From: Daphnia carinata
Lineage: Eukaryota
Length of the DNA stretch: 64,000 bases
Direction: 5' to 3'
Assembly (NCBI RefSeq): GCF_022539665.2
Contig: NC_081332.1
Span: 7,378,001-7,442,000 of the forward strand
The position numbers were made by a program, and so were the translations under genes. The notes under the pieces were generated by a model. The model saw only the letters and a list, made by a program, of their open reading frames with translations. It did not search any database and was not told the origin of the DNA. Position 1 is the stretch's first letter. The number at the start of each line of letters is the position of its first letter. This document shows positions 19,399-61,300 of this stretch, piece after piece.

Positions 19399-20129
19399 TG
19401 TAACGAATCGTCTAGCGAAGCCCCTTCTTACCTTCTTTCTCAATAGACTAGAACCTCATACCTGTAGCCCCTTGTTACTCAGAGCCTTCATTTACTAACC
19501 TAGTTGTAAACTCCCTTAAGAATATAAAAATAATGAAGACATGTCTGGGCACGCTGGCTAAAAATAGATTTATTTCGGTTGGTCCGAGATTGCCCGAAAT
19601 GGCCTAAAACCGCCCGACCGATTTCTAGCTATCGTCCAAATTCGTTCGATACCGCCCGAATTTGCCCGCCTATACCTCTTCATTGCGCCCAAAATCGCCC
19701 GATATCGCCGCCTATCCGTTAACACTGTCCCGTAGGACTCTCACGGTCGATGGCTAACATATAAGAAGCCATCGACAACTCACAGTAGTTAGTCGATCCT
19801 GGAAGAACTATCTCGTGTAGACCTTCAGCGCCCTTCCGAGCCGCTACCTCCTCCTCTCCAGCTGAAGCGTAAGTCTTCTCTTAATAATATTCGCTACTTG
19901 TCTTAGCTATCCATTGGTCGTGTAAGCCAAGTAACTTGATACGCCACTGGAGGCCCTTGCCTTCGATCTGTTCAATCTATTGACTACTTGTAATCTCTTA
20001 ATACACGTTATTCTATCGTACACGTATTGTCTTACGCTTATTTGTACACGACATTGTGAGTAGCAGCGCCGCGTTTAGTTGTATTTTCAGTATTGGAGGC
20101 AACATGACAACGTCGTGTCCTCCTCTACA
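19399..20129 (+). repeat. 5' LTR of provirus A (731 bp)
   Basis: TGTAACGAATCG...CCTCTACA. About 13 substitutions and one 10-bp tandem duplication versus the 3' LTR (counted by eye, ~98% identity). Confidence 0.96.
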
Positions 20130-20131
20130 TC

Positions 20132-20144
20132 TGGTGGCAGCGGT
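20132..20144 (+). promoter_or_regulatory. Primer binding site, tRNA-Leu
   Basis: TGGTGGCAGCGGT lies 2 nt after the 5' LTR and is complementary to the 3' end of tRNA-Leu (…ACCGCTGCCACCA). Confidence 0.85.
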
Positions 20145-20161
20145 TTTTGAACTCACTTACA

Positions 20162-23100: not shown

Positions 23101-23300
23101 CAGGGTGTTCCAACTGCGGACTCACAAACCATAGCATTGAATCTTGCTTCCGATTCCTAAGGCAACAGACAACCCCGGGAACGCCACCTACCTGTTATGT
23201 TTGCCAACAGTTGGGGCATATAGCGAAATTTTGCCCCAATAAGAAAAACTTAATAAGGTCCAATGAAATTAAGGATGCTACGAATCAGGGAAACGAATAA
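20162..23300 (+). pseudogene. gag: gag of provirus A (split over several frames)
   Basis: Capsid-like LQNFSGSPAVRFDRWIKLFD; zinc knuckles CSNCGLTNHSIESC and CYVCQQLGHIAKFC; long N-terminal extension. Confidence 0.85.
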
Positions 23301-26300
23301 GGGCCGGCCTTAGAATAGGGTCGACAGAGAATAGGTCAGTAAGCCCCGAACCATTATCATCAGTCGCAAAAATTACAGCATTCAGTAAATCAGCAGCCCC
23401 ACGACTTTCCGTAAAGATTCACAATACTCCGTTTAAAGCATTATTCGATACTGGCGCGGCTAGGAGCCTATTACATATAGATATTTTTAATCAAATAACG
23501 TCGGAACATCAACTAAGTTGCTCTGAGTCTGACGTAGAATTATACGACGTGCACAATAGGAAACTGTTCACATCAGGGATAGTCTCCCTACCTGTTGTTT
23601 ACGGCGCCAATATACTAGACCAAGAATTTATTGTCACGAATGGTATTTGTGAAGCATGTATATTGGGTTTGGACGCCGCAGACAAACACGAGTTTATTTT
23701 TGATGGCCGCTCTAAAACAATATTCCTCGCCCGTGACAGACCAGAAAGTAAACTAGAAGTAAAACAAGAGGGTTTATTACCGAAGGGCCAAGAGCCAATA
23801 GTTAAAACAACCATGACTTTAGTTAAAAGGGTCTTAATTGCCCCCAGATCTTCTCAAGTCGTGGAAGCCACATTTCAGGAGACTGGTAATATTATGGACA
23901 CCAGTCCTCTCTTTTTATTTTCCCAGAGTATGGATTTACCTGAAGGAATATTTATAGGCGATTTTGTAAATGCTAGGAACAGAAACGGAAGATATCAGAT
24001 CGTTGTGGAAAATAAATCTAATAGGGCACATAATCTGCCGAGGGATAGTCCCCTAGGAGAGGTAGAACTTTCTTGTCAACTGATAGGCAAAGTATCATCA
24101 GGTCAAGAGTCTGCTTCTCAGGCGAATCCTCCCAACGAGGAACACGTACCAGAACCGGATATCAACCCCCAATATAAAAAACCGTTAGCGGCACTTCTTA
24201 GTGAATTTACTGAACTATTTGCGACAAAAGACTCCGGATTAGGGAGTACAGGGTTGATTAAACACTTCATTGATACAGAAGGGAAAGGGCCTATTCGACT
24301 TCGACCTTACCGTACAGGCCAGGGCCAAAAAGAAGAATTAGAGAAACAAATAAAAGAAATGTTGCAAGCGAACGTAATAAGGCATTCAACATCCCCATGG
24401 GCAGCACCAGTAATCTTAGTAGTCAAGAAAACAGGGGAAATGCGTTTTTGTATCGACTATAGGAAACTAAATACCTTAACAAAAAAAGACTCTTACCCAC
24501 TTCCAAGAATTGATAGCACTCTCGATAGACTGTACGGAAAAAATTCTTTACAACCTTGGATCTGGCCTCAGGCTATCGGCAGATCGAACTAGAAGAATCA
24601 TCTAAAGAAAAAACTGCCTTTATCGTAGAAAATAACCTATACGAATTTGTTAGAATGCCTTTTGGATTATGTAATGCGCCGGCTACCTTCCAGCGATTAA
24701 TGAACCATATATTAAGAGATGTTGCAGGTCAGAAAGCCCTAGTTTATTTAGATGACGTAATTATTTTTTCCGACTCCTTCGAAAGCCATCTGAGCGACAT
24801 TCGGGAAGTCTTCTCTTTAATTAAAAACGCAAAAAAAATAAAACGCATAAAAATTAAAACTAAAGAAATGTCAATTCATGAAACAAGCAGTAAATTATCT
24901 GGGGCATATCATTTCCACCGACGGTATCGGCCCGGACCCAGACAAAATAGACAAAATAGCTAATTATAAAGTTCCAACGTCAGCCGAAGAAGTACGATCC
25001 TTTTTAGGATTAGCTGGGTATTATCGACGCTTTATCGAAAATTTCGGAGCTATTGCCCAACCCTTAACCGCAAAAACCCATAAAAATGCATTAAACAGAT
25101 CCTTCGTCTGGTCGGATGACGATCAAAAGGCTTTCGAAAAACTGCGTACATTTTTAATCACTCCCCCACTATTAGCATACCCTAACTTCGACCTCGAACT
25201 TTTATTGTTCACCGATGCCTGCGATTACGGAATCGGCTCTGTTCTTTCACAGATACAACACGGTGTAGAAAAACCCATAGCATGCGCGAGTCGACAACTA
25301 AAACCGGCTAAACAAAAATACGCTACAGTAGAAAAAGAGGCATTAGCAGTTGTATTCTCTATTAAGCATTTCCGACACTACTTGCTAGATAAACCATTTA
25401 CGGTGATTAGCGATCACCGCCCTCTTCAATGGTTGGAAGAACAGAAAGACAACAACGGCAGATTAGGCCGTTGGGCTATTTTATTAGCCGGTACCAACTA
25501 CAAAATTAAGTATCGGCCAGGACGCGTACACCAAAACGCCGATTGCCTGTCACGCCTTCGTCGCTCATATTCATATGGATAACGCAGAAATAGATATAGT
25601 AGCTAGCCAAACTACAGACCCATTATGTCAAGCAATAAGGAAATATCTAGACGCCGGAGTCCTCTCCGACGAGGATGAAAAGAATATGCCAATCTGGGCA
25701 AAAGAAATTAGTTTCTACCAAGTTACAAATAGTGTACTTTACAGAATAGAAACATCAACGGCAAAAAGCCGGAGAAATATTCTGAACCCCCAGGTTATCC
25801 TGCCCCTTACGTTACGACGGGCAGTATTAAAACAAATGCACGACGAACCTATTTCAGGCCACCTCGCTTTCCTTAGAACCTATCTAAAAGTCAAAAATAA
25901 TTACTACTGGCCCACAATGAGAAAAGACATAAAAGAATATTGCTCTGCTTGCGAAATCTGTATTGCAAACACTAATTCTACACTGAGAGCCTTCCTTTTT
26001 CCCCACGAATTAGCTAAATTTCCATTCCAGATTATAGGAATAGACTTTTTGGGTCCGATCCAACCAATATCCCCTAATGGAAATAACTGTATTTGCGTAA
26101 TCACCGATTACTTCACGAAGTACGTCATCGCCGTTGCCCTACCCGACCAAACTGCCCGCACCACGGCCGAATGCGTGTATAAAAATGTTGTATTGACCCA
26201 CGGGGCCCCCACTAGCTATCGTCTCTGATAGAGGACCGAATTTTACCTCCGGTCTATTTAAATACTTTTGTAAAAAACTTAACATCGAACAAAGATTCAC

Positions 26301-26810
26301 TACGGCATATAACCCAGCAAGCAATGGGGAAACGGAAAGATTTAACCGAACCCTCACCACGATGCTAAGAAAAGAACTCGTAGATGGGCAACATCATAAT
26401 TGGGAAGATGTATTGGGAGAAATCTGTTTCGCATACCGCGCCTCCGTTCACTCCTCCACCAACGAGTCACCTTACTATATGATGCACAGCCGTGACTGTA
26501 ACATGCCTATAAACACAATTCTGGGAGCAACTCCTGAAGCCATACCCTCATCATGTGGTTACGTCGATACACTGCTCGAAAGACTACGATATAGCTTTCA
26601 CCGGACACGGGAAGAAAATGAAAAAGCCAGGGAACGCCAAAAGGAACAATACAACAAAAGGGCCAAAATATTTAATTACAGACCGGGAGATCGAGTCTTA
26701 TTAGATGTCCGGGTGGTGCAAAAAGGAGACAACAGGAAATTTACATCGAAATTTCGAGGCCCTTATCGCGTCGTCAAAGTGTACTCAAATCGCCCAGTGG
26801 ACATAGTAGT
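23288..26810 (+). pseudogene. pol: pol of provirus A (PR-RT-RNaseH-IN), several frameshifts, IN C-terminus deleted
   Basis: LFDTGA protease (~23441), YLDD, FTDACDYGIG, HDEPISGH...CEIC, DF/SDRG/ETER and GPY motifs. Frame breaks near 24545, 24840, 25560 and 26210. Confidence 0.92.
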
Positions 26811-27528
26811 CTTCCAGACGACCACTCCCCGTCCGAGAAGATAGGCCAGGGCCTCTCGGATGAAGATTTAGACGCCTACTTCTCGAACCCCGGCAGCCTG
26901 AACCATCTGGTCGAGGACGAGGCAGGGAACACTGACTTGGGGGAAATTTCTCGCCCTAGACCGCTATGTGGCCTGTCTGAAGAACGGCACTAGCACAAGG
27001 AAATGGACGCCGTTCGGCCTCCCTACCATGGAATGGCCACCCTACGGCTTCATCACGATAGCGAAAAAAGCGACCGACGACAACAAACTACGGTCAACCG
27101 GCCAAGGTTGGCTGCCCACCAAAATGGAGACAATTTTACTGATGTTTTGTGCAATCCTCTTTATTTTTGTATTGTTTTTCTTTAAGTAATAACAAATAAA
27201 AAAAAAAAAAAAAGAACCCTTAAACTTCTTTTCTACCCTTGGATTTATCATATATATATATAAAAAAAGTAGTAACAATAAAGAAAGAAATGATTAAAAA
27301 AACAAACAAACAAACAAACAAAGTAAAAAAAAAAAATAAACGAAAAAAAAAAAAATAACTAAACAACAAAAAAAATATATAATAAACAAAACAAAATAAC
27401 ATAAAACAGTGCATATACGAACTCCTCCTACTTCATATGTATTCCTTTTTTTTCATGTGCCGAACATACGCCGCATGACGTATGACGCGCCACCTATAAT
27501 TTCCTCGCCACACGCCATCTTCCAAAAA

Positions 27529-27715
27529 CAGCATTGCCATGTCTCCCCAACCATTTTCTCGCATCCTTTACTTTCAAAAAAAAAAAAAAAGGCAGCATTG
27601 CCATGTCTCCCTGACCATTTCCGCGCACCCACCCTATTTTCCACAAACAGCATTGCCATGTCTCAACAAACGGTTCCTCGCCCAATATATTCCCTCAGCA
27701 ACATTGCCATGTCTC
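27529..27715 (+). repeat. Four spaced copies of the 17-mer CA(G/A)CATTGCCATGTCTC in the pol-env intergenic region
   Basis: Copies start at 27529, 27593, 27648 and 27699. Confidence 0.85.
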
Positions 27716-28326
27716 TTCAAGCCTATTGTGATCCTCCTTCCCTTCTGATTTACAACGTTACCGTTCCCTTGTTTTCCAATCCTAGTTTACGCCATTATTG
27801 GCCATTACTTAGCTACCTTTATTACCCTATTAGCGATCTTCAACAAAAAAAAAAAAAAAATTTTTCTTTTTTTATTTTAAGTGCAAAATACATAGAAATA
27901 AATTTTAATTCAAGCAAATATTACCCAAATACAACAACAAGAAAAAAACGCCTGAACAAACAGGGTTTCTTGTTTAAGGCCCAGTCGTCGGATACGGGGT
28001 TTGTGAGGTTTGAACCCACGTCCAGCCTGCAGCATTTGCATGGCAGTCCACTGCGATACCAGTGCGGCAAACTACGACTATAATTAGATTATGTTTAGTA
28101 TTCGCAAAATCCCACAACTACAATTTATTCTACATACTATTAATAATATTTTGTCCCCGTACGTTCCTCCTTATCATTCCCATACGAATATGTTAACCCC
28201 TTGATAATTATATTCCAAACAAACAAAAAAAAAAAGTGGAAAAGAAAAAGTACTGCCAGAAATATGGTAGTTATAAAAACATCAGGTAGTCATAAAAACA
28301 AAAATGTTTTTATGATTTCCCAGATC

Positions 28327-30060
28327 ATGCTGATCCCTATCGCGTTGACCCTCCTGCTCTCATCATCAAGAGCATTTCAAACCACAACATGCAACTGTAA
28401 TAGCCCGACTGGAGTTGGACTTCTTCAGTTCTCCGACGGTCTTTGCGAGCCTACCAAACGCGTCTCACACACTAAAGTGGACTACCGAGTAATGACCGAC
28501 AAAAAAGCAGCCTTTAACTTCCCAGGATATATCTGCGGCAGATGGAAATCAATCAAACACATCACGATCAATTTCGTGGGACAAGTCATAATCGTCCCGG
28601 AACGCATCGCCATGGAAACAACAGCCGTAGAGTGCGATATCATGAGGCAGTCAAAAAGGTGCAACGAGAGCCCAATGACCATATCAGAAAGCAAATGGGT
28701 ATTCAACCAAGAGCCAGACGACGTAGGATATTGGCTAAGGACCACTACCGTGGTCACCATCAACTGCATGTTGGAGGAAGTTGTCCTCTCCCGCATCGAT
28801 GAAGGGGACATAATCAATACGCCCTTAGGAAAAGCCAACGTGACGCATGGTTCCTTATCTCACAATCACCTCACCTTATTCTGGATCGACACATACGGAA
28901 AAGCAACCGACATCTCCCTCAGACAATTAGAAAAGGGTGTGGGATACTGGTACGAATCTTCAACAAACGGAACTCGGATTCTCCAAGATGACTCCAAACA
29001 ACTAGACTTCCATGTACGACTGATGTCACGTTGTCAGACTGTGAAGTGCGACAAAAAGACAGAAAGTTGGACCGTAGTTGGAGACAACCATTTATTCGTC
29101 ATCACATACCCGTTGGGCCCAACCGCAGTCACCATGCCTTCAATCTTCAAAAACACTACAACTAACATGAGCGACTCCCTAGACATCAACATCCGGCAAA
29201 ACGCCAGAATCCAATATCTAGAAGATGCTGCCATCCGCCACGAAAACGAACTCGTCCGAATCGTCCAGAGCATACAATGTGACCAGCAACGCACCAAACA
29301 CGCACAAACTGTATTAAATGCTCAATATAATGGATGGTTGGCAGCCACACAACTGGGCCTCCGTCAGTGCGTGAAACTGATCGCTACCGGAAACATCGTC
29401 TCAGCCATCCAGTGTACTCCTACGACGGTCAATTTCACAACAGACACCACCATTTGTGGACCAAAACCACGGTTCGGGAATTCTACCATCGGCCGATCCG
29501 GGTGGGAACTCACAGAGTTCACGTCATGCTACTGGGCTGGTGGAATCGTTAACTTTAACGATAAACCATATGCCTACCACAATAACACGTGGCAACTGGC
29601 CGAATCATCCGTCGTCGTACCGCAGCCGATCTAGCCGACGCTTTCCGTTACCAAGATGTCGATTTCTTCGAGTACCAGCATCAAACCAACCCCGCATATA
29701 CAGACACTCTGGTTAGCCCAATGGATGTGATGGCCGACATTACATTAGCTATGAACGAACATTCGGCGACTGGACCAAATCTAAACACAGGAGCTTCCGC
29801 AATCGTCATCTCATCAGCCGAAAAAGCCGGTCTCGGCACCTTTACCAATTGGTTCGAGAATTTTAAAGTCTACTCGTTTATCATTCTACTTATCGCCGCC
29901 TTCCTTCTACTCGCTCGCGGCTGCTATGCCCTCGGATTTTGTGGGTTAATATGGAGATGTTGTTGTAAACCCCCACGCCCCCCCCGACAGCAGTTTACCG
30001 ACCGCAGAACAACCGCCCGAGAGAGCCCTAAACTTCTTTTGGATTGCGGGACGCAATCTG
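28327..30060 (+). pseudogene. env: env glycoprotein of provirus A (class III fusogen-like), frameshift near 29620
   Basis: Signal peptide MLIPIALTLLLSSSRA, Cys-rich ectodomain with N-glycosylation sequons, TM helix (VYSFIILLIAAFLLLA) and Cys-rich tail. Clear homology to 46175-47893. The end coordinate is approximate. Confidence 0.88.
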
Positions 30061-30076
30061 GTATGACGGGGAGCGA

Positions 30077-30817
30077 TGTAACGAATCGTCTAGCGAAGCC
30101 CCTTCTTACCTTCTTTCTCAATAGACTAGAACCTCATACCTGTTGCCCCTTGTTACTCAGAGCCTTCATTTACTAACCTAGTTGTAAACTCACTTAAGAA
30201 TATAAAAATAATGAAGCCATGTCTGGGCACGCTGGCTAAAAATAGATTTATTTCGGTTGGTCCAAGATTGCCCAAAATGGCCTAAAACCGCCCGACCGAT
30301 TTCTAGCTATCGTCTAAATTCATTCGATACCGCCCGAATTTGCCCGCCTATACCTCTTCATTGCGCCCAAAATCGCCCGATATCGCCCGATATCGCCGCC
30401 TATCCGTTAACACTGTCCCGTAGGACTCTCACGGTCGATGGCTAACATATAAGAAGCCATCGACAACTCACAGTAGTTAGTCGATCCTGGAAGAACTATC
30501 TCGTGTAGACCTTCAGCGCCCTTCCGAGCCGCTACCTCCTCCTCTCCAGCTGAAGCGTAAGTCTTCTCTTAATAATATTCGCTACTTGTCTTAGCTATCC
30601 ATTGGTCGTGTAAGCCACGTAACTTGATATGCCACTGTAGGCCCTTGCCTTCGATCTGTTCAATCTATTGACTACTTGTGGTCTCTTAATACACGTTATT
30701 CTATCGTACACGTATTGTCTTACGCCTATTTGTACACGACATTGTGAGTAGCAGCGCCGCGTTTAGTTGTATTTTCAGTATTGGAGGCAACATGACAACG
30801 TCGTGTCCTCCTCTACA
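30077..30817 (+). repeat. 3' LTR of provirus A (741 bp), preceded by PPT GACGGGGAGCGA
   Basis: Direct repeat of 19399-20129. Confidence 0.96.
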
Positions 30818-38032: not shown

Positions 38033-38050
38033 TCCCGGGTTTCGGCACCA
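38033..38050 (-). promoter_or_regulatory. Primer binding site, tRNA-Phe
   Basis: Minus strand reads TGGTGCCGAAACCCGGGA, 3 nt inside the 5' LTR; 18-nt complement of the tRNA-Phe 3' end. Confidence 0.9.
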
Positions 38051-42589: not shown

Positions 42590-43550
42590 GTATGGAGAAT
42601 CGTTTACCGTCACTGTATTAAGCTTACGGTAATTCACGTAGAAAGGCCATGTTCCGTCTTTCTTTTTCACTAGGACCATAGGAGAAGACCACTGGCTGTC
42701 CGAGTGCTCGATTATTCCCTGGCGCAGCACTCTTTTTAACTTCAATCACACTCGTTCCTTCCACGCACTTTTATAGGGGAGCTGATGAATTAGAGGGCTA
42801 TTTCCCGTAGGCCTATTAATGTCGTGGTGCACCAAAGTAGAGTTTTCCACATCATCTTCGCTTAAAGCAAAGCAGCTAATGAATTTCTAGAGAATTTTCT
42901 TGGGTCTTCCTGCACGTTTTTCCCATGTTCCTCCTCCTCCAATTTTTCTAATGTTTCCATTGTTACGCTTTTCTCCAGCCATACAGGTTTCGGCTATAGG
43001 TTGGCTGCAAGAATTTTTTCTACATCAGTCTGAACGAGGGCATGGCACGTAGATAAGCTTGTAGCGACCAAAATGGAATGCGAAGGTTTCAGGATGCAGT
43101 CACCTTCCACATTGCTGGACACTTTTCCAGGAACAGATTTAATCCGGTACGCTGGAATTTCCTGGTGATCGCTGGTCACTAGCACTTTATCTTCTGAATT
43201 TTATACTGATGAAAGAGAAATTGCTGCGAACGATAGATCACCCATGGTGAGAGGAGATTTCTCCGTTTGTGGTTGATTTGTATAGATCCAAATTGCTTGG
43301 GAAAATTGTTTCCCGTCAGAAGTTCCATCCTTGACATAACCATAACTATCGCTTTTCCTTCACAGATCTGTTCTTGTGGGTCACCGTGATTTCGGCTGCT
43401 TCTTGGGGCATCACTTATATACCGTTTGCGAGAATAATCCGCAGAGCCATCCAATGACTGCTGCACGAAGGAATTTTCTTCAGCAGTTTGAAAAAGATGA
43501 CTGTAACTGCAGCACCGTATCAATCACTGCTGTGGCGAACACTTGCCCGC
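42590..43550 (-). mobile_element. Fragment of a different Ty3/Gypsy pol (protease to N-terminal RT)
   Basis: AVIDT(G)AAVTVI near 43520; GIIEHSDSQWSSPMVLVKKEDGTW...VNYRKLN at ~42615-42720. Abuts the BEL-C 3' LTR. Confidence 0.75.
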
Positions 43551-44667: not shown

Positions 44668-46174
44668 GACACTTACGTTGGACGTAGGTGTTCACAGGGG
44701 ACACGTTCACTAGACGAATTTAGGTCAACTGAATGTCGTCTGTTAGCAGGGTAGGCTAAACAGTTTCCAGCTTTGTATTACTAAACAGCAAGCGGCCTGA
44801 CTTTTGCTCTTTGCCCTATATTTGAACTTGAATATAGGTGGCGCTGAGCTTAGCGAACTCGCCACCAGAGTTTAAGTTGCGATTTTCTACGTTGTTGACA
44901 TTTTTGTGTCGTCTTTGCATGATTGTACTTGTCGCATTTCCAATTTTGAATTTGCGACTTCAGCTCTTGATTTGAACTCCATTACAAGCAGTAGTTACAT
45001 ATTTGCAATACTTAAGTTAGTTGCTTAAGTTAAGAACGTTTACGCTGTGGGAGATTCTCTTTTCTTTTCCTTTGCATAAACTTCTTGATCTTTTTCCGCA
45101 ACCCTAATACATAGTTTAGCCACAGGACGAATACATGGTCTTGGATGTTGGCTGAGCTTCACTTTCACTACTCGAACAACATTGTCCGTAGGGCTGGGAA
45201 TGACTTCAAGCACTTTACCAAACGGCCACTGACCACGCAAAGTATTTGGTTCAATTAGAAGCACCAGATCTCCCACGGTGACGTTAGGCCTATTTTCTTG
45301 CCATTTTCTTCTTTCTGTTAAGTGGGGGACGTATTCACGTACCATCTATTCAAAGAGTGTTGGAGGATGGCTTGGCTTTGTAGAAACTGCTTGGTAGTGT
45401 AAAGCATTCTTTTAGTAATAAAAGAACGTCTTTACGTGATTTAAAGACAAGTTGTAATAAGAAAATGAACTCGGGAAGGCGTTACCACAATGCCGAATAT
45501 ATTTTATTCTTATAGGCCGAAGATAATAAATGAATTACACAGATATAGAATATAAATGGGAAACGGAAATACAAATGGAGTCAGGTGAGTCTAGTCTTAC
45601 CGTCACCGCCGTGGCAAAGATGGAATAAAGATGTCAAACGTTGAAAGAGAAAAGATAAGACAGACGGAACTTGTCAGGCACACAAGAAGCGATGAAAGTA
45701 CTCACAATAATTATGGAATGAGTAACAAAATTGAACTACTATATTTGAAGAAATAGACAGCACTTGTAGCACTAAGAATGAGAACTGGAACTGGAAATAA
45801 CTGAAGGGCTGAAGAGAACTGTATGAGTATAGAACTAACTTTTGGGAACAAAAAGGGCATCCTTTTATACGTTTTACAGGCTTAAGGGAACATAGCATTT
45901 CCGACAAATGAGCTCCGGATGTCGTACGCAGGAACATTTCATATTCACGGAAATGCATGGCGCGACTTCCTACTCATGCAGATTCATCCAATCGGAAATA
46001 AGTAGAGCACAAGGTACAATATAAAAATAGAATTCAACGAAAGGGCAACAACACTTGAATTATGATATCTATAAGAAATAAAGACAACGGATATAATATA
46101 TAATCATATTAATAAAACAAACAATCAAAACACAATATAATTCAATAAAAATTTTATTTTATGACTTCGTTACA

Positions 46175-47893
46175 TCACTCCCGGCGGTGCGAGATTACGT
46201 CCCGTAATAAGACTTCATAAGCGAAATCCGGTTCTGGTTCTTGAATTGGGCGACAGCATAACTTGCTGATGAGTCCGAAAAATCCACAGCCATAACAGAT
46301 GCGTAGAAAAAGTAGACCAAGGAGGCAAAGTACACCAATAAAGAAATAATTTTTAATAGTTTCCCACCAGCTAGTATAAGAGTTCACTCCAGATGCTGAT
46401 AACAAAACGTTAGTTACACTTGGTCGATTATTGGCCGAAATTTCACTCGGCGAATGTTCATTCATAGCTGCGGCAATATCAGCCATAATACTCATATGAT
46501 CCATAATAGTTTCACCATACGCAGGGTTATTTTTATGTTCATAGTCAAAAAATTTCACATCTTCATAACGAAAAGAATGCGCAAGGTCTTGTACCGGTAA
46601 GACGATGCTTGCGTTCACGGGCTTCCAAGTGTTATTGCGAAACGCATAAGGTACGTCATTGAAGTTCACAAATCCATTAGTCCAATAACACGGCGAATAT
46701 TTAACAAGTTCCCAACCATCTAAATTAATGGTATAGTTTTTTAATTTTGGTTGCGGTCCACAAGACGTTATGACGGTCTCGAAGGTCACATTTAAAGGTT
46801 TGCACGATATGACAATGGCAGTTTTTCCAAATGCTTGTAATTTTGTGCATTTGGGTAGATCTAGATGCGAGGCAGCTAACCAGCCATTATACTGTGCTGC
46901 AATAATCGCTCTTACATGTTTGGCCTTTCTTGAATCACATTGTAAGATTTGAATTAATCGTGATAATTCATTTTCATGGTCCGTAAATTGATCACGAATA
47001 TATTGCAAGTTAGCGGGATGATCCAAATTTTGAGCGCTAGGTGGCGCGGGGTCCGCCAATGTTATTGTCAACAAATTTTCCATGATGGCCGCCGTTGTAA
47101 CGAAGAGTTTTGATTGGCCGACGATGTTAAAAGCATCAGATTTCTTTGAAGAAGAGTTTTGTATGGGAATACAACGCGGTTGAAAAGATAAATGAAAATC
47201 CAATTGTTTTTTATCACCTTGAAGGCGAAAAATTCTGTCCTTGCCCGTTTTTCGGATTAATTTCCCAATTCCAGATTCAATGAGATGAGCTTTGGGTTCA
47301 GTACGCTGAGTATAGGTTTTGTCCCAAACCAACGTTAAATGATTATGCGACAAATGACCTGTTGACGCGGAAGCAATACCAATAGGTGTGGAAAAATTAC
47401 CATCTTCAATATCTTGATAAAGACGAATTTTCTCGAGCGCACAATTGACAATTTCCACATCAATTGTTTGTAACCAACGACCGAAAATTTGAGGTTCACG
47501 ATCAAAAACATATTTATTTTCTGTAGCACTCATTTTTTGATCGTCGCACCGGAGACTGTTAATCATATCGTTGCACTCATTAGACGTAATGTCAAGCGGA
47601 ATTTTGTCAGGCACAATCACTAATTGTCCAAAAAAATTCATGGTGACATGGCGTATTTGTTTCCATTTAGCACAAATATGTCCAGGAAAATGAACAGCCG
47701 CACGCACTTCACTATATATAGAATATTGTACGTCAGCGGAATGTTTATCATTTATTTCCGGATGACAATCGGCATCCGAAAATTGAATTATTCCCATTTT
47801 CGACGACTCGGTACAATCACATACGGTCGCGTCAAAGGCTCGAACGTTAAGTCCGTAAAGACATAACAGTAACAAAATGGACAAAGACGACAT
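46175..47893 (-). CDS. env: env glycoprotein of provirus B, intact, 572 aa (class III fusogen-like)
   Basis: Signal peptide MSSLSILLLLCLYGLNVRA, FDATVCDC, GHIC..WK...TMNFFG, GRWLQT, ENEL...LQCD, TM helix YFFIGVLCLLGLLFL, Cys-rich tail and YEVL motif. Confidence 0.92.
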   Translation of the reverse strand: MSSLSILLLLCLYGLNVRAFDATVCDCTESSKMGIIQFSDADCHPEINDKHSADVQYSIYSEVRAAVHFPGHICAKWKQIRHVTMNFFGQLVIVPDKIPLDITSNECNDMINSLRCDDQKMSATENKYVFDREPQIFGRWLQTIDVEIVNCALEKIRLYQDIEDGNFSTPIGIASASTGHLSHNHLTLVWDKTYTQRTEPKAHLIESGIGKLIRKTGKDRIFRLQGDKKQLDFHLSFQPRCIPIQNSSSKKSDAFNIVGQSKLFVTTAAIMENLLTITLADPAPPSAQNLDHPANLQYIRDQFTDHENELSRLIQILQCDSRKAKHVRAIIAAQYNGWLAASHLDLPKCTKLQAFGKTAIVISCKPLNVTFETVITSCGPQPKLKNYTINLDGWELVKYSPCYWTNGFVNFNDVPYAFRNNTWKPVNASIVLPVQDLAHSFRYEDVKFFDYEHKNNPAYGETIMDHMSIMADIAAAMNEHSPSEISANNRPSVTNVLLSASGVNSYTSWWETIKNYFFIGVLCLLGLLFLRICYGCGFFGLISKLCCRPIQEPEPDFAYEVLLRDVISHRRE

Positions 47894-49510: not shown

Positions 49511-50017
49511 CTAATCACCGATGGTTATGACCACCGGGCCGCTGGGGCGCCTTCCGGCCCGTCCGCAGGTGGGGCATACGTCTTGTATCCACCATTGGGA
49601 TAACGCCCAATTGTGTGGTGAAGGCATACGGTTTTGCGGGTCAAGCTCCAGGATCTCCTGAAGTTTTTCTACTGATCGTTTCCATTGACCCTCGTTTAGA
49701 GCTTTGTGTAGCTCTAGTTTTAGAATTCCGGTTCGAAGGTTCAGGTAGTGCAGGTTGAGGTCGCGTTGGGTAGGCCAGTTAGGGGGAACGGCCAAGAGTT
49801 CCGAGAGTGGCCTGAGTCGGATCGGGTTGGGGTGCGCCGGTGTGGGGGGCGGGTTGCTGTGGTTCCGGGGCGGAATAGATGGTGGTGTAACACGGCCAGA
49901 TGGCCCCGCTTCCGGCTCCCCGAAATCAATTGGCCTCAGCCGCCAACCACTGTCGGAACTATGCCGACGAGTAGTGTATGATGGTAGCCGATGGCCTCTG
50001 TTGTTATCCTTTGGCAT
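49511..50017 (-). CDS. Provirus B accessory ORF-b, 168 aa (Pro-rich N-terminus; TPR-like hairpin + CxxC)
   Basis: Sense-strand ATG ORF forming a GC-rich island in an AT-rich spacer; C-terminal domain paralogous to 50938-51531. Confidence 0.7.
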   Translation of the reverse strand: MPKDNNRGHRLPSYTTRRHSSDSGWRLRPIDFGEPEAGPSGRVTPPSIPPRNHSNPPPTPAHPNPIRLRPLSELLAVPPNWPTQRDLNLHYLNLRTGILKLELHKALNEGQWKRSVEKLQEILELDPQNRMPSPHNWALSQWWIQDVCPTCGRAGRRPSGPVVITIGD

Positions 50018-50937: not shown

Positions 50938-51531
50938 TCAATCCTTCTTACAAAATCTGCAACGGTAGGCCGGGTTCCAGTCTTCTGGAAACCAACCATA
51001 AAGGGGTGGACTTCGATTTTCGGGATCTAGATCCAGAATCTTCTTCAGCTTGAGCACTGCTTTTTTCCAGTTTTCTTGGCGGATATGGAGTTGTAGCTCC
51101 TCCGCCAACTCCCTTGTCCGTCGACGCATTTCTCTGTTGTAGCGGCGCTGCTCCCGACGCCAGTTAAATTCGTTTTCCGAGTCCTGTGAATGAGCACCTG
51201 GGCTTCGATAATTATCCCACATCTCATCCCACAGTTTTTCATCGTCGTCTCTTTTCCTTTTCTCGTCCTTAGTCAATATTGGCTGTAGAAATTCTTCCAC
51301 GGCCTTCTCCCGCCGTATCTCCTTTTCTTCGTCAGTTTCTAACTCTCCTTCTTCTTTTGTCCCGTGACGTTTGGTCGCCGGTTCCTCGTTACCGGTGAGT
51401 GGATTAGATGTCGTCGCCACTTCGATGGTTTGGGCGATGTCCCACTGGTTCAGTTCCACCGCGCTGCCGGAATCCATGTTGGAATCAAGATCACCAAACA
51501 CAACTGTTGAATATCTGTCACTGTATGTCAT
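50938..51531 (-). CDS. Provirus B accessory ORF-a, 197 aa (acidic/basic N-terminus; TPR-like hairpin + CxxC)
   Basis: Sense-strand ATG ORF just after pol; ends WKKAVLKLKKILDLDPENRSPPLYGWFPEDWNPAYRCRFC. Confidence 0.72.
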   Translation of the reverse strand: MTYSDRYSTVVFGDLDSNMDSGSAVELNQWDIAQTIEVATTSNPLTGNEEPATKRHGTKEEGELETDEEKEIRREKAVEEFLQPILTKDEKRKRDDDEKLWDEMWDNYRSPGAHSQDSENEFNWRREQRRYNREMRRRTRELAEELQLHIRQENWKKAVLKLKKILDLDPENRSPPLYGWFPEDWNPAYRCRFCKKD

Positions 51532-51583: not shown

Positions 51584-54500
51584 TTAAAATCCATATCGAA
51601 TAGGCTTCCTGCGATTTCTTTGTGGGCGTCCGGTGTTCGCGACTGTTTCAGGTGCATCCTTTTCCAAATTTTCTTGCAAATTTTCAGATTGTATCTCATT
51701 TGGTGGACACTTTTCCGGCGTGTCTTTCGCACAATTTTCAGAATCGTGTGAATCCAGATGAATGACCTCCATCTTCGTCGATTGTTCAGTCGAATTCGTA
51801 TTTTTTTTTCGTCGCGAGAGTTCTCGCCTCTTTTCCGGTGTGTATTTTCAAGTCGTCGCCAAGAAGTGTAGTGTTTACATCAGGAGAAGGGTTTACAATT
51901 TCTTGGATAACATACAAATCATCAACTTCATCTATAGGCTTATCCAGATTTTCTGATTCATCAATTGTTTGAGTTGAAATTGTTTTACGAAATCGATTCT
52001 CAAACTCAGAAGACGATTCAAATGGAGGACAATGCTCGGTCTTCCAAAGCATTGTTTCATATAACGGTTTTAATCTGTTAACGTGAGTACGTTGACAGAT
52101 ATAGGAATTATCTGCTATATCTACTGTATTATTAGAATATACCTTAACTATCCTATACGGCCCTTTATATTTAGAAGTGAATTTCTTACAGTCCCCATCT
52201 TTAACTACACGAATATCAAATAACACTCTATCGCCCACAGCGTACCGCTTTTCCTTTGCACGTTTGTTATATTGTTCCCTCTGGCGCTCCCTAGCTTTTC
52301 CGCTTTCTTCCCTAACCCTTTGGAAACTATATCGCAAACGTTCCGCTAAATTACCCACATAATCAGAAGAAGATTTAAAAGTTTTTGGGGACGCATCCAG
52401 AAATTCATTAATTGGAATATTCGGGTCCCTACCATGCAGCAAATAATAAGGGGTGTCAAGTGTTGACGCGTGCACTGAACTACGATATGCAAATAATACG
52501 TCGTCTAACATATCCTCCCAATTGGAATGTTCCCCATCCCTTAATTCTTTCCTTAACATTGTTGTTAATGTTCTATTAAATCTTTCGGTCTCCCTATTAC
52601 TGGCTGGATTATATGCAGTCGTTAATCTTTGATCGATCTTTAATTTTTTGCAAAAATATCGAAATAATTTTGACGTGAAATTTGTTCCACGATCAGATAA
52701 AATAGCTTTCGGCATCCCATGACGGACAATAATGGTTTTATATATACACTCAGCTGTTGTTAACGCAGTTTGATCTTTTAAAGCGACAGCTTCTACCCAT
52801 CGGCTGAAATAATCAGTAATAACTAAAATATAATTATTTCCGTTAGGCGAAATCGGAGTGATAGGCCCTAAAAAGTCCATTCCAATTACTTGAAAAGGAG
52901 CTTTGGCGACTTCATGAGGGTGCAAAACTGCTCTATATGTAGAGGAAGTGTTAGCTATACATATTTCGCAAGCTTGGCAATACTCTTTAATATTGCCCCT
53001 CATGTTAGGCCAATAATAATGGTTTTTTACTTTTAAATACGTCTTATAAAATGCTAAATGCCCTCCCATCGGTGCGTCATGTAATTCCTTGAGCACTAGA
53101 TGGCGGAGCTCTACAGGTAACACTAATTGATAATTTACGTCGCTGCGCTTGCTATTTGACAAAGGCAACTCATGCCGATAAAGAGTACCTTCGATGACTT
53201 CAAAATATTCAATTTCTTTTACCCAATCTGGCCTAGCTTGTTGAAAAATTTCATCCAATTCTCCTTTCTCCAAATAATTCCTAATAGCTATACAAAGTTC
53301 ATCTTCTAATTGTTTCTCACAAGTAAACTTAATATTTTTCCCAGTTTGAATACTCGCCACCTTTAAACGTGACAAACAGTCAGCATTTTGGTGAATACGA
53401 CCAGGCCTATACTTTAACTCATAATTGGTCGCAGCTAACAATATAGCCCATCGTCCTAATCTCCCATTGTTATCTTTTTGATCCTTAAGCCACTGTAGTG
53501 GACGATGATTACTAATAATCTCGAATGGCTTATCCAAAAGATAATGTCGAAAATGTTTAATTGCATCAATCACTGCTAAAGCTTCTTTCTCTGTAGTGGC
53601 ATATTTCATCTCAGCTTTTGTTAATTGTCTACTAGAATACGCTATCGGATGTTCGTGGCCATTTTGTATCTGCGAAAGTACCGCTCCTATTCCATAATCA
53701 CATGCGTCTGTGAAAAGTAAAAATTTTTCATTGAAATTGGGGTAAACTAATACTGGGGGCGTAACGAGAGAAGTTCGTAATTTTTCAAAGGCATTTTGCT
53801 CCTCAGTACCCCAAACAAAAGGTATTTTGCTAAGGTCTTTATGAGTTAATCGGGTCAATGGCTTAGCTATTGATCCAAAATTTTGAATGAATCTCCTATA
53901 ATATCCGGCTAATCCCAAAAATGATCTTACTTCGTCTACAGAAGAAGGTGTTTTATAATTCACTATTTTATCGATTTTCCCTGGATCTGGCTTAATTCCC
54001 TCAGTCGAAATGACATGGCCTAAATAATTTACCGATCGTTTAATAAACTGGCATTTTTTAAGTTTTAATTTTAAATTTGCATCCTGTAGTAGTTGAAAAA
54101 TTTCCCGAATATCCCTCAAATGGTCCTCGAAATTATCCGAAAAGATTATTACATCATCCAAATAAACTAATGCCTTACTTCCCAAAACGTCTTTCAGTAC
54201 ATAATTCATTAGTCTTTGAAATGTGGCAGGTGCATTGCACAAGCCAAATGCCATACGCTTAAATTCGTATAGATTATTTTCTACAACAAATGCTGTTTTT
54301 TCTATAGCTGGCTCATCTACCTGAATTTGCCAATATCCCGCAGCTAAGTCGAGAGTAGTAAAAAATTTCTTCCCATACAATTTATCCAATGTTTCATCTA
54401 TCCTTGGCATAGGAAACGAATCTTTCTTTGTGATACTATTTAATTTCCAATAATCGACGCAAAACCTGACTTCTCCACCTTTTTTCTCAACTAAAACCAC

Positions 54501-55574
54501 AGGTGAAGCCCATGGCGAATGCGAGTATTGAATTACATTCGCATCAAGCATTTCCTGTACCTTATCCTCCAATAATTTTCTTTGATTATTTGTAACTCTA
54601 TATGGGCGTTGTCGGATAGGGCCTCGTCCCTGTGTATCAATTGTATGTTTTATAAGATCTGTGTTGCCTAATTCTGAATCTTTTGCAGCGAACAAGTCGT
54701 GAAAGTCATTTAATAATTTAGCGAGCTGTGTTTGAAATTCGGGGTCGACCTCCGGAATTACAATAGGCTCTTTTACTACGTTAGGCCTGTCCTCAACTTT
54801 ATTTAAAGAAATTTTTCCGATCGTTCGAGTAGTAGCTTCGATGCCACCTAACTTCGTACCCCTGGGGATTTTGACTTGATTTAACGAATGATTTTCAACT
54901 AGAATATTATATTTTCCATCTCTCGATACTTTTCCTACGAACTCCTCAATAAAAACGCCGGCCGGCAAATCTTCTGCTGGGGTAAATATAAAAGCTGTAT
55001 TCGGCGGAACAAACGGAAATGACCCTTTCATTTGCGCGGCAATTACTAGCGACGTCTGACGAGATAACGTCGTCTTTTTGACCGAAGTAACTGCCATGTC
55101 CGGAATGCTAGAAATAGCTGATCCCTGCTTATCTCTTGCTAAATAAATGCTCTTGGCTTCTCCATCAAGCCGAAATCCGTGTTTCTGGATTGCGTCCCAT
55201 CCAAGGATACAGTCCTCAGAAACACCATTTGTAACAATAAACTCTTGTTCCAAAACTGACTCTCCGTATCGCACGGGCAAAGTAACGCTCCCCAGCGTAT
55301 GTAATTTTTTCTCCCCTACATCGTATAAATCAAAATCAAGTTGACTGCAGATCACTTGACCTCTTTGGGGTAATTTCTTAAATAATTTCTCATGAATAAT
55401 ACTCTTAGACGCTCCTGTATCGAATAATGCTTGAAGTGGGATCTGATGAATTTTCAATGGAATTCTCGGTGTCGATTCATTCGTTATGGTTGTTAATTTT
55501 GCGACTTGTCGGGATTTACACGGAGGCTCCCTATCAACTGACCCGAAGTTACAGTTGATACCTATTGGTTTCCC
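51584..55574 (-). CDS. pol: pol of provirus B (PR-RT-RNaseH-IN), open for >1200 codons; IN tail shifted at a homopolymer ~51805
   Basis: LFDTGAS, YLDD, FTDACDYGIG, HDAPMGGH...CEIC, MDF/SDRG/ETER and GPY motifs. The tail RPQRNRRKPIRYGF* lies in 51584-51772. Confidence 0.95.
55532..55574 (-). promoter_or_regulatory. -1 programmed ribosomal frameshift signal (G GGA AAC + stem-loop)
   Basis: GGGAAAC, a 7-nt spacer, then a TATCAACTG-(11 nt)-CAGTTGATA hairpin. The -1 frame is open into pol. Confidence 0.85.
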
Positions 55575-58356
55575 TGGTTCGGAGGCGGACTTGGAATGTT
55601 AGGCCTACTCTGGTTTTTTGCCTTTGTACAGTTGTTTGATTTATGGCCAATTTCCCGACATGAATAGCATATTGGTGGCTGAGCTTGTTCTAAACTTTGC
55701 CGTTGATATTTGTAACAATTTGTCTGCGAATGACCCTTATATCCACAAAAATTGCAAATCAGCTGTGGCTGTGTAGGCTTGTGGTGAGAATCACCAGCTG
55801 GTTTTGAAACAGGGGTTTTATGAGCTGTAGGCCTATCCGGGAATTTATTGAAAGATTGTGCGCCATTATTATTGTTATTCTGCTGCGGAGGTCTCCAATT
55901 CCTATCCTGGTTACTGTCACTAGTTTGGAACGAAACTTGCTTCTTATACGGTGCGCTTGATACGTTTTTATCAAATTGCAATTGCCTTACCGCTTGCGTT
56001 AGCTCAAGAAGTGCGCCCTTAATTTCCTCCTTTTCAGTTTTTGGGTCATCGACTTGTTTGCTTCCCTGTCTGATATTTGCTACGGCATTTTTGACGAATT
56101 CTTTTTGCTCCAATATTATTTCCTTTAGTTCTTTTAATTCTGCATCTTTGGTGTCAGGAGGCTCAGTCACTGCCCTAATAAAATCATGTTTTTCCCTATC
56201 CGTTTCCATGGCCTCCAGTCGCAATGCATACATTCGTGTCGCCGAAATAAGATCATTAAAATTTTTAAATTCTTTATATTTAACTTTCGATTGTAATTTG
56301 GAATCCAACCCCTCTATAAATTTTTGCATAAGAATTATAGCAAAAGATGCTTCTGAATAGCCTACAGGATATGCGCGTTTGAAAATTTCCTGCAAACGAT
56401 GAGCATATTCTATAATCTTTTCCCCTGGCTTACGCTTAGCTTTATTAAACTTCTTTTGATAAAAGTCAGCATTTTCGTCACCATGAAAATGATCAAGAAG
56501 AGATTCTTTAATTAAAGCATAGTTGTGAGGATGACCCTTCAAGGTTGCCTGAATAATCGAGAAAGCTTTATCAGCCAATTTTGCCCTTAACATCTGAATA
56601 ATTTTCCCCTCAGACCAACCTGATCCTTCTACTATACTTTCAAAAGATTCTAACCAGGAGTCAAAACGCACAAGGGGATTTCCAGAAAAAGAAGGAAGTA
56701 GCTGTAAACGGGAAAAAGTGTGTTGATTATTTTGGAAATCGTTCAAATCATCGACTATGGCCGCTCTTGATCGAGAACAAGATTCCGCCATGTTTGGATT
56801 AAATTTTAAAAAATTCAAAGCTCTTCCCTGGGAATTCTGAGGGTGTTCTGAAATGTCGTTCATAATTGCCTTAAATTCCCCTGCGTTGTATCCGACTGGC
56901 TGGGTGGGTGGGCTCGAGGACAGGGTAGAGGGTACGTAGGACAGTGTAGGGTTTGTGACTGATTGAAATGATAGTTTCTTCTGCGCGACCGTTTCCTCTT
57001 TGGAATGCTTCCCGACAGCGGCGATGTTTGTTGGATTGGCGTGCTTTGTTGCTGCGTTGGTCTCGTTTGTATGAACGTCAGCGATTGTCTCAACTTTTGT
57101 TCCGTTTGCGTGATTATTGGCTTGATGTCGCTCGCCTGCTGTGCGAAGAACGGGTTGTTGGCTTCCGGAAAATTGTTCAGTTTGTCCAAAAGGAATATGA
57201 TTTCCGGCTGTAGTACCTCCAAATTGTTGATGAGTTGTAGTTTCTTTAGGTATGCCGCTAGGTTGGCTACTTCCTTTAGGAACGTTCGTTGGGACGCCAG
57301 CAAGATCTCTTCCAGATGAAGGGATGTGTCGCTCACTTTGGTGATGATTTCCACGTATCTCCCTTCCTCGTCTCTGTCGGTGATGTCCCGTCTTGGAACG
57401 AAGCCGAATAGTTCTCGCTTTGTTGTTGGTGTGACCACTTGAAGGTCTATTATGTTGTAAATTTGTCCGTGTAGGCAAGTCAGAACCTGTCTCGCGTGTC
57501 GTGTGAAAATTTTCTTGAGCTCCGTCACAATTTCCTCCGTCTGCTTCTTCGTCTTCTTCGTGATCGGTACACTGGCTTTCACCTCCAGAATGGATGTCAG
57601 ATACTTCAGAAGTGTCTTCGGTTGTTTCCAATCCGTTAGTGTTGTTTGGCGTCGTAATTCCTCTGAATGTTGCGCATCAACACGACAAGATGATCCCAGA
57701 TTTTTGGGTCGCTCGATTGGAAGTCCTTCTCCCTCTCCTTGAGGCTCTTGATGGCTAGCAGTAGGAACGGTAGCTGGCTGTTCGGTAGTTGGAAGATGCT
57801 GTCCCCTTTCTTCTTGATCTCTTGGAACAGGTGCTGAAGGTTGACGTTGAGCTGGTCTTCCATTGGTTGTCTTCTTTTTTGCAAACAAACCCGAGACTTG
57901 TTCAAAAAAAGCGTTTGTTGGGGAAGTGTTTGTGGAAACGGTTTTCTTGGGTGAAAGACGGTTTACTAGTTGGGCTATGAAGGAAGGAGAATTTTTTACG
58001 GTCGAGGTATCAGCTTTACTTTGAGCTCGTGGTTTGCGAACGTTTGAAAGGTCTACTGGCTTTACTAACTCATACGCAGAGTTCGATCTTAACTTTCTTA
58101 GCTGGGGATTATTCGGAATTGCACTAGGCTTCAAAACAGGAGAGGCAGATTTCCTGATAGTTTCTGTTGCTTTTCTCGAGGTTTTATTACCCGTAAACTT
58201 ATCAGATCCAGCAAGATTTGAAGTGGAAGTTTTATCAAAATTAAGGGTTCTGGCTACACCTTCATCAATTTGAATAACTGGCTCAATAGGACTTTTAATA
58301 GTGGATACAGGTGTGCGAGAAAGTTTATGCTTACTAGAAAAAATATTATCCGTCAT
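55562..58356 (-). CDS. gag: gag of provirus B (one frame break near 57000)
   Basis: ATG at 58356; LPSFSGNPLVRFDSWLESFE capsid region; zinc knuckles CNFCGYKGHSQTNC and CYSCREIGHKSNNC. Confidence 0.85.
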
Positions 58357-61300
58357 TGTGAGTGAGTTCGATAGATCGCTAAAAATATTCCCATAAATAA
58401 ATGGGAAACGGAAATACAAATGGAGTCAGGTGAGTCTAGTCTTACCGTCACCGCCGTGGCAAAGATGGAATAAAGATGTCAAACGTTGAAAGAGAAAAGA
58501 TAAGACAGACGGAACTTGTCAGGCACACAAGAAGCGATGAAAGTACTCACAATAATTATGGAATGAGTAACAAAATTGAACTCACTATATTTGAAGAAAT
58601 AGACAGCACTTGTAGCACTAAGAATGAGAACTGGAACTGGAAATAACTGAAGGGCTGAAGAGAACTGTAGGAGTATAGAACTAACTTTTGGGAACAAAAA
58701 GGGCATCCTTTTATACGTTTTACAGGCTTAAGGGAACATAGCATTTCCGACAAATGAGCTCCGGATGTCGTACGCAGGAACATTTCATATTCACGGAAAT
58801 GCATGGCGCGACTTCCTACTCATGCAGATTCATCCAATCGGAAATAAGTAGAGCACAAGGTACAATATAAAAATAGAATTCAACGAAAGGGCAACAACAC
58901 TTGAATTATGATATCTATAAGAAATAAAGACAACGGATATAATATATAATCATATTAATAAAACAAACAATCAAAACACAATATAATTCAATAAAAATTG
59001 TATTTTATGACTTCGTTACAGTAATGACGTTCATGTTTTCCACGTCGGCCAGCTGGAGGGGCAAGTACGGCCGAGCGCCATCGTATAGAAAGTGATTTGG
59101 CGTAAAATGATCAGGATCTTCGGGATCCATGCTTAAGTGCGTTAACGGCCGGCCATTTAGCAGAGCTGCCACTTCAACAACGACGGTCCGTAGTACTTGG
59201 TCTGTGACTAGGCAATTACCTATGCTGGTTTTCATTGCCCGCTTACAGGATTGTACAATCCTTTGCCGAGTGGGAACATCACTCAACATCACCGAAGTGG
59301 GACCTTCGTGAAGCGAAGTGCCATTCTACTTTTTGACAGGCCATCATCGTCTGAAGCTCTTCGTATTTAGTAACAAGTTCTTCCAAAGCCTGTCGCAACT
59401 CCTGCTCGGCAGCAACAAAGTTTGTTCCATTGTCACTGTAAAAAACCCTCGGTTTTCCGTGCAGGCTGACAAAACGAGAAAAACAGAGTAGGAACTCCTC
59501 CATACTGAGCCCGTTGGCTATTTCCAAGTGGATTGCTCGTGTCATCAAGCACGTGAATAGGCTAACCCAACGTATTTCAATGTCGTCTTCCTCCTCCATC
59601 GTCTCGTACAGTTAAAGGTCCAAAGTAATCGACCCGGTGTACGTGAACGCGGGCAGATGAGTTGTTAAACGGTGGACTGGTAGTGAAGCCATCAACGGAG
59701 GGCTAGGCTTCGACGACGTGCATTTGCAAAGCCAGCAATTGTTGATTACGGATTTTACCACCTTGCGTCCAGAAAGTATCCAATAGCGTGAACGGAGGTC
59801 AGTCAATAATCTCTCTGTTTTGACGTGCAGATGTCTTATGTGATAATCCCAAACTATTCTCCGTGTTAAAAGTTGCGTCGCTGGTAGGAGTATGGGGTGC
59901 TTAGCTGCATAATCTATTGGCGCGTGAAGTATAGGTCCGCCTATTCGCAACTCTCCGACTTCATCCAAGAAGGGCTTGAAGGTGCGAAGCTTTGATCTGA
60001 GTGGCAATTCTAGATTCTTGCGTAGGGGCGTAGAATTCTCCAGCAAAGGCCGATTCCTGTGCACGTATGATGCATACTGTCAGCGTTGTTACTATTTCTT
60101 CTAACGTTAACTCTCCGACAATGGGTTTTTCTCCACATAATTTGGCTCGAGCGTTGTTGGAAAATCTTTGATTCCAGGCCAACACTCGTTGAAGTTTCAA
60201 CAAGTTGGAAAAACGTACAACACATCGATTGATGACGTGGTTTTCATCTTCCGTTTTGACTGCCAAGATAGGAATCACGTTTACATCCCGTTCTTCTGGC
60301 TCCGTATTTTCTTCCCAAATGTGCCACTCTGAGGGGTCTAGGTTCAGGAACAGAGGTCCTCTGTGAAAGTTGACCAACTCGTTGACATCCTTTGGGCCGA
60401 TACTTCTACTGCAGAGGTCCGAAGGGTTTAAGCCTCCAGCAACATGATGCCATTGTCGGTGACCTATGTTCCGGAGTATTTTACCGATGCGGTTGTTGAC
60501 GAAGACTTCAAATCGTCAGGTTTTTGTAATGGATCCACCGTAGCACCGTTCGTGAGTCCGTGTGGAAAGTCACTTGTCGCAAGTCGATTTCTAGTTCACG
60601 ACAAATCGTGAGGTCGATGCTGAGACCTTCTATTGCATTCATCAGCGTGACGTATGTTTTTGACATAACGAACTACACGTTGATGGACTGATTCTCGAAT
60701 ACGGTACGGAAATAGGCTACTGCTCGGTAACCTTTGGAGCTTGCATCCGTGAAGACGTGGAAGTGCTGTGGAGTCCAATGTCCGCGTTTGAAACGGAAGC
60801 ATCTCGGAACCGAAAAAGACTCTAAATTTTTCAGATGGTCGTACCAGCAATAGAAACGTTGCCTCAATGTTTCAGGTAAGACGTCGTCCCAACCAATCCG
60901 TTCTTCGTTTGTCCAGATGTCTTGGAGCAAAGACTTCATTATGAAGACAACAGGTGCAACCATTCTCAGCGGGTCGTAGACACTAGAGATGATGCTTAGG
61001 AAGGCTCGCTTGGTGAGGGTTTCGTTGTTCGACGGCTTCCGAATCTAGAACGTCAGCATATCTCTCTCTCTGTCCCACATTACTCCAAGCGTTCTTTCAA
61101 CGGGGAGTTTCTCCAAGTCCAGATCCAGGGTTGGTGAAGCGAGGCCGCATTCTCGTAACGCTGCTATCACCGTTCTCGTTGACGACGTCCATTTTGTCAA
61201 GTTGAACCCGCCTAACTGAAGAAGAGATTTCATCTGGCGGGACCGTTTGACTGCCTCGTCTTCAGAGTCGAAGAAGTCGGAGTAATTGTCGACGTAAAAC

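Follow-up and report, generated by a model that had tools for sequence, protein, structure and literature searches.

A 64,000-nucleotide stretch of Daphnia carinata DNA (contig NC_081332.1, positions 7,378,001 to 7,442,000; hereafter the window, to whose first letter all positions refer) holds two proviruses with an env gene, and one of them, provirus B, raises the question of what kind of envelope protein it encodes, where this protein comes from and whether it still serves cell entry. A preliminary description had placed an intact 572-aa membrane protein in the env position of provirus B, and this proved right, the strand, which had not been given, being minus. The frame of env B (46175..47893, minus strand) runs from 47893 to 46175 with no internal stop in 572 codons by ORF reading, and its product, a predicted class III fusogen, opens with a hydrophobic stretch, taken from model and sequence as a predicted signal peptide, carries six N-glycosylation sequons and a single transmembrane-like segment at residues ~512-543, and is predicted to end in a Cys-rich tail. 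The gene follows pol at a distance of 3.9 kb and precedes the 3' LTR, its stop codon lying directly against the LTR. A chance ORF was ruled out by 53 homologs at E<=1e-3 and, in a profile search, 1035 cluster representatives at E<=1e-3; identity as a cellular protein was likewise rejected. We consider it probable that env B is an intact errantivirus-type Ty3/gypsy env, homologous to the branchiopod envelopes published as 'HSV/gB-type', and that it is a class III fusogen as its predicted structure indicates.

The element that carries this gene is ordered on the minus strand as 5' LTR, ORF1, gag, pol, two small ORFs, env and 3' LTR. Taking an errantivirus operationally as an env-carrying Ty3/gypsy element, we found gag, pol and env between LTRs and the protease, RT, RNase H and integrase of pol in Ty3/gypsy order. 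The 3' LTR (45398..46174, minus strand; ~777 bp, TG...CA, its far end inferred) terminates in CA; the next 4-mer agrees with the upstream flank in 3 of its 4 bases, and beyond it a BEL/Pao integrase-like frame resumes. It seems ~150 bp longer than the portion common with the 5' LTR (58397..59020, minus strand), of which the first ~624 bp are present and the last ~150 bp, together with the primer-binding site, are gone. The provirus B insertion is young, because its LTRs match at 621 of 623 aligned bases. A tRNA primer-binding site sought at the end of the 5' LTR gave no match, and we infer that a deletion took the end of this LTR along with the primer site; the cut end (58355-58410) carries a short filler in inverted repeat, as templated repair typically leaves. 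A primer-binding site was found in provirus A and in the related loci L004, L011 and L018, and its loss in provirus B is a lesion of this copy. ORF1 (56860..58356, minus strand; 498 aa) had no Pfam match above cut-off, and its stop overlaps the gag ATG, with ~270 codons overlapping the open gag frame. This overlap of stop and start suggests a frameshift or stop-restart coupling. Gag (55562..56863, minus strand; 433 aa from its ATG) matched a PNMA-like capsid and zf-CCHC in Pfam. Pol (51786..55598, minus strand; 1270 open codons) was compared with seven relatives at the 242 columns where five or more of them agree, and departs from these at 15; one of the deviations lies in a conserved RNase H motif, and the integrase tail is probably frameshifted. 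Since the primer site is lost and pol deviates in this way, provirus B is likely not autonomous, though its env is open, and its own reverse transcription likely cannot be primed.

The flanks of provirus B (45040-45397 and 59021-59611, minus strand), once translated, were read by eye as the two parts of one BEL/Pao-like integrase end; it looks as if provirus B interrupted a BEL/Pao element in its integrase end, and the window is a nest of LTR elements. A third LTR element lies at 33857-38368, with 318-bp repeats 98.7% identical and minus-strand ORFs, one of them with DUF1759 (BEL/Pao gag-like), and at 38700-42900 tblastn picked up a degenerate Ty3/gypsy gag-pol remnant resembling provirus B. 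On the plus strand, 5629-10694 holds long low-complexity ORFs of 701, 857 and 170 aa and a 48-nt tandem repeat at 6900-7091; the 701- and 857-aa ORFs gave no Pfam match above cut-off, and these ORFs probably belong to a host gene as large exons. Provirus A (19399..30817, plus strand; LTRs 19399-20129 and 30077-30817, identical at 719 of 732 bases) shows a target duplication of 4 bp; its tRNA primer site, at 20132, is the one given for Dpul_3 and Cdub_6 in PMC13524379 and recurs in L004, L011 and L018, and gag and pol are split over several frames. In both proviruses a long ORF stands upstream of gag (56860-58356, minus strand, in B; 20162-21886, plus strand, in A); the one in A overlaps the open gag frame by ~160 codons, and tblastn found no similarity between the two. 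The divergent env homolog that had been claimed for provirus A (28327..30060, plus strand) is present, with 41% identity to env B over 435 columns, but it is not intact: with a frameshift near 29620-29634, the frame ends at 29634, and the membrane anchor is encoded in a different one. Synonymous sites between env A and env B are saturated (pS 0.82), and dN/dS for this pair is therefore uncomputable.

We argued that the predicted fold should tell whether env B belongs to class III, as had been proposed, or to the baculovirus F type of the classical insect errantiviruses. The AlphaFold model of the full protein had pLDDT 72.6 and pTM 0.37, with residues 436-507 unmodelled, while that of domains I-II reached pLDDT 92.3 and pTM 0.76. 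In these models the domain architecture of class III is seen, namely a PH-like domain II carrying an inserted fusion domain I (predicted, residues ~45-272), a central helix (predicted, 291-335) and a beta-rich crown (predicted, 350-430), with a stem of low confidence ahead of the transmembrane segment. With Foldseek against the PDB, every row listed to rank 50 for the full model was herpes gB (best E 3e-15). VIA with the full model gave gB at Z 10.5 (368 residues, rmsd 11.8), VSV G at Z 9.4 (122 residues, rmsd 2.8 A, env residues 65-198), Mokola and Chandipura G at Z 9.1 and Dhori at Z 8.0, and with domains I-II gB at Z 11.2 (214 of 228 residues, rmsd 5.2) and VSV G at Z 9.3 (187 residues, rmsd 7.1). 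When the domain I-II model was compared with 48,161 PDB representatives the first 10 rows were all class III fusogens (Z 10.9 for gB, 8.8 for Chandipura G, 7.7 for Bourbon, 7.0 for Thogoto and 6.1 for gp64), followed by PH-like folds at Z <=6.0. Single-sequence and family-profile searches of PDB sequences with env returned nothing relevant. The product of env B is thus predicted to be a class III fusogen, folded as the fusion proteins of herpesviruses and rhabdoviruses are, and the choice of class III over the baculovirus F fold was upheld in these predicted models. A baculovirus F-type env was rejected, as the fold matches class III and no R-x-[KR]-R furin motif occurs in the env B sequence; the earlier remark that the furin site of the classical insect errantivirus env is not evident here was likewise confirmed.

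The preliminary description had further read two motifs shared by env A and env B as fusion loops lying together at the tip of the fusion domain. The first, G[YH]IC..WK...[IV]T[IM]NF[VF]G, is present in both proviruses, with one residue more between WK and [IV]T than the pattern as written allows; the spacing of 17 aa to the following Cys and the second motif, P...G[YR]WL[RQ]T, were correct in both copies. By DSSP of the models, predicted loop 1 (47624..47638, minus strand; residues 86-90) is the turn between strands 68-85 and 91-100, and predicted loop 2 (47465..47482, minus strand; residues 138-143) comes just ahead of strand 143-159. Position 87 is hydrophobic in 66 of 67 relatives and 88 in 62 of 67, as are position 140 in 66 and 141 in 64 of 68. 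The Asn in NF[VF]G, by contrast, is retained in only 21 of 68. The two hydrophobic loops, which may lie together at the tip, both stand at strand ends, and the fusion domain superposes on that of VSV G; the condition under which the class III reading was to be given up did not arise in these models.

Whether this env belongs to a known group was decided by comparison with the env-bearing Ty3/gypsy elements described across metazoans by Chary & Hayashi (eLife 2026, PMC13524379), where Daphnia and Ceriodaphnia elements are listed with 'ENV_HSV' and 15 Branchiopoda_C2 sequences of domains I-II are given. One env relative, P0214, matches domains I-II of Cdub_errantivirus_5 when compared by eye, and it shares 32% identity with env B over 527 columns (E 7e-90); through P0214, full-length homology to published C2 members was found. 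The SHNH/HNHLT signature of the env A/B subclade occurs in 0 of the 15 published Branchiopoda_C2 sequences. Three domain I-II cysteines of Cdub_5 are missing from env B, so that the C2c bridge pattern may not hold there; several published members likewise lack the CxxC pair. A midpoint-rooted tree of domains I-II, with 69 rows drawn from the family alone, placed env A and env B inside a clade of 37 rows (support 99/97), which adjoins the clade with the Cdub_5-matching proteins, the join having support 86/86. By sequence comparison, then, env A and env B are an unsampled subclade of a published group, and the kind itself is already known. The suggestion of a new lineage was not supported, branchiopod class III errantiviruses being published in PMC13524379. 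A literature search found nothing else on this env.

We further asked, from relatives, whether the gene is maintained. The 53 homologs of env B came from 6204 candidates, at 30-69% identity, and all named ones are from Daphnia, many of them partial (coverage 21-78%). No RNA source was listed for the env region, which is no evidence either way on its expression. The profile that yielded the 1035 representatives was built from 33 sequences and these are clusters at 50% identity, 150 of them listed, and a wider env profile, in a search limited by shared words, found 57 proteins, with no named virus and every named one from Daphnia; a scan of viral contigs confirmed no env relative among 22 candidate stretches. 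Among 30 metagenome loci, at least 8 (L001, L003, L013, L014, L017, L018, L021 and L023) have Ty3/gypsy pol directly upstream of env, most of the others being too short to show pol beside env. Another gag-pol occurs downstream of env at 1462-11380 of L011, with a primer site at 3999, and at 501-9951 of L024, which suggests tandem or adjacent elements. Of the 14 pairs of env B with relatives 11 were saturated and the other three gave dN/dS of 0.15-0.37, and four close unsaturated env pairs gave 0.125, 0.22, 0.079 and 0.084, which established purifying selection on env in these relatives at the sequence level. These data bear on whether env could be a vestigial passenger, a former fusogen with no present use in cell entry, in an element that moves only intracellularly. 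The frameshift of env A, the truncation of many named Daphnia homologs and the lost primer site of provirus B are in keeping with such decay, but full-length frames are open in env B and in 13 translated metagenome loci, dN/dS is as low as 0.08-0.22 in the close pairs and 13 Cys positions are near-invariant among 36 diverse members, and we regard a vestigial env as very improbable. The protein of env B likely lets particles enter cells.

The preliminary description had gone further, and named a negative-strand virus G protein as the captured ancestor of env. That a branchiopod Ty3/gypsy lineage took up a rhabdo-, nyami-, xinmo- or chu-like G independently of other errantivirus envs draws on several observations. 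With ESM features the top five family sets were Negarnaviricota G at 0.97 against 0.92 for herpes gB, the recognition value being under the tool's strong-evidence line. Among 68 family members, at E<=0.05, Pfam found Rhabdo_glycop_FD in 15, Monjiviricetes_fusion in 11 and Glycoprotein_B in none, and one relative, P0123, passes the PF24664 cut-off of Monjiviricetes_fusion (31.8 bits). The env family profile finds loop 1 of rabies G at E 0.11-0.19; the compact fusion domain superposes on VSV G over residues 65-198, and domains I-II, with 228 residues, are closer in length to G (~210) than to gB (~320). The top BFVD Foldseek matches were xinmo-, invertebrate rhabdo-like, chu-like and nyami G, and PMC13524379 cites a paper whose title concerns capture of an RNA-virus glycoprotein by a nematode metavirus.

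At the level of env B itself the resemblance to rhabdovirus G is real but weak. Rhabdo_glycop_FD (PF00974) reaches E 0.015, below cut-off (16.5-18.1 bits against 22), and no PF24833 or PF24834 match, for the central and PH profiles, accompanies it; with PF24664 env B had no match and env A 19 bits against 27. Speaking against capture, no single donor emerges: viral structural matches share 9-14% of residues with the full model and 10-17% with domains I-II, the best BFVD TM-scores are nearly equal (nyavirus 0.65, chu-like 0.64, herpes gB 0.63), and gB and entomopoxvirus proteins are interspersed among the BFVD matches. Solved structures slightly favour gB over rhabdovirus G (Z 11.2 versus 9.3 for domains I-II). 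The published Cdub_5-like protein matches the same Rhabdo profile, and the motif is found in other errantivirus envs, since in the supplement of PMC13524379 NFFG is seen in three envs from nematodes and one from a ctenophore, and NFVG in a single nematode env and in rabies G. The Discussion of PMC13524379 argues for an ancient association or acquisition of env with pol, and a global phylogeny of class III was not inferred in that paper. Since the identities form a flat continuum of 9-17%, solved structures point to gB and NF[VF]G occurs elsewhere, no donor or direction is shown, and capture of a negative-strand G specifically by this lineage is unsupported and, in our judgement, improbable. 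Env seems to have resided in this retrotransposon lineage for a long time. By sequence features it is nonetheless nearer to Monjiviricetes or other negative-strand virus G than to herpes gB, and because these searches favour negative-strand virus G over gB, the 'gB-type' label fits the branchiopod envs only loosely. Searches for literature joining Monjiviricetes, retrotransposon and class III found none, and 'glycoprotein' does not occur in the main text of PMC4573495.

Two further features set relatives of the element apart. Ricin_B_lectin was detected at E<=0.01 in 19 of 48 longer or full-length relatives by Pfam scan, at or above cut-off in 11 of the 19, and the lectin-bearing relatives include P0080, P0090, P0093, P0102, P0105, P0107, P0131, P0158, P0167 and P0174. 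In P0090 the beta-trefoil lectin follows domain II and precedes the central helix, a place taken in env B by a short low-confidence linker; the lectin domain is absent from env A and env B. The lectin is likely a glycan-binding attachment module, pol adjacency not having been seen for these long envs. For Cdub_3 and Dcar_7 the supplement of PMC13524379 records no more than 'extra domain(s)', and neither 'lectin' nor 'trefoil' appears in its main text and seven text supplements, figures apart; literature combining errantivirus, lectin and glycoprotein B was not found. Between pol and env, provirus B has two putative accessory genes, small ORF 1 (50938..51531, minus strand; 197 aa) and its paralog small ORF 2 (49511..50017, minus strand; 168 aa), which share 35% identity over 63 aa (E 1e-11) and each end in CxxC. 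A common helical motif links both to an ORF at the same place in the element in L001 (2647-3255, plus strand). The small ORFs had no Pfam match above cut-off and a weak TPR-like hint below it, and a profile of the three sequences found 9 proteins, mostly near the L001 ORF, one of them from D. pulex, where its contig equals in length the one that bears a D. pulex env homolog. They are possibly an accessory gene family, duplicated in provirus B.

Gene order, the open frame, homology to the published group, conservation of loops and cysteines and purifying selection in relatives were directly observed for env; how the protein would act is drawn by analogy from class III biology. The product would be secreted and glycosylated and would likely trimerise on budding particles, without need of furin priming or cleavage. 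Endosomal low pH would probably be the trigger, upon which the two hydrophobic loops would insert, the protein would fold back onto its central helix and the membranes would fuse. By analogy with Drosophila gypsy, the element might spread from soma to germline. Cell entry of gB-type errantiviruses is called unknown in PMC13524379, and the lectin of the relatives bears on this entry, as with it a class III fusogen of one chain would have an attachment function of its own. The provirus B copy itself is ordinary, since its kind is already published. The wider family adds something: the 'HSV/gB-type' label hides the nearness of branchiopod envs to Monjiviricetes G that is seen with profiles and language-model features, and the 1035 clusters are material to test which way genes passed between retrotransposons and negative-strand viruses. 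A more ambitious reading, to which we would give only a small chance, is that water fleas carry a complex infectious retrovirus-like lineage whose env groups with negative-strand G and not with herpes gB, exchanged in either direction, with entry by one protein, a swappable glycan-binding lectin module set between domains II and III in many relatives and accessory genes between pol and env.

Compared with known systems, the env of Drosophila gypsy and ZAM holds the same genomic position and presumably the same role as env B, but it is a class I F protein with a furin site and fusion peptide, of a fold unrelated to env B (described in PMC13524379). Herpes gB is the top solved-structure match over the whole ectodomain as well as over domains I-II, and differs in that identity is 10-16%, the fusion domain of env is smaller, Pfam gives no gB match and the provirus B element has no gH/gL partners. 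The G proteins of VSV, rabies, Mokola and Chandipura viruses superpose in the fusion domain (2.8 A over 122 residues) and are weakly alike in the loop-1 region; solved structures of rhabdovirus G align mostly to the N-terminal half of the env B model, whereas gB aligns over 22-431. Among exogenous viruses the nearest proteins by ESM and BFVD are the Monjiviricetes G (PF24664), similar in length and with a compact fusion domain, and unlike env B in that identity is only 9-17% and env is a gene of a reverse-transcribing element. From published Branchiopoda_C2, env B differs in that its subclade is absent from the 15 listed, it has three fewer domain I-II cysteines than Cdub_5 and provirus B is without an extra env domain; the main text of PMC13524379 is silent on the additional ORF before gag and on the pair of small ORFs that separate pol from env. 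With that group it nevertheless shares the Ty3/gypsy gag-pol-env organization with LTRs, a homologous env, the class III fold and a furin site that is not conserved.
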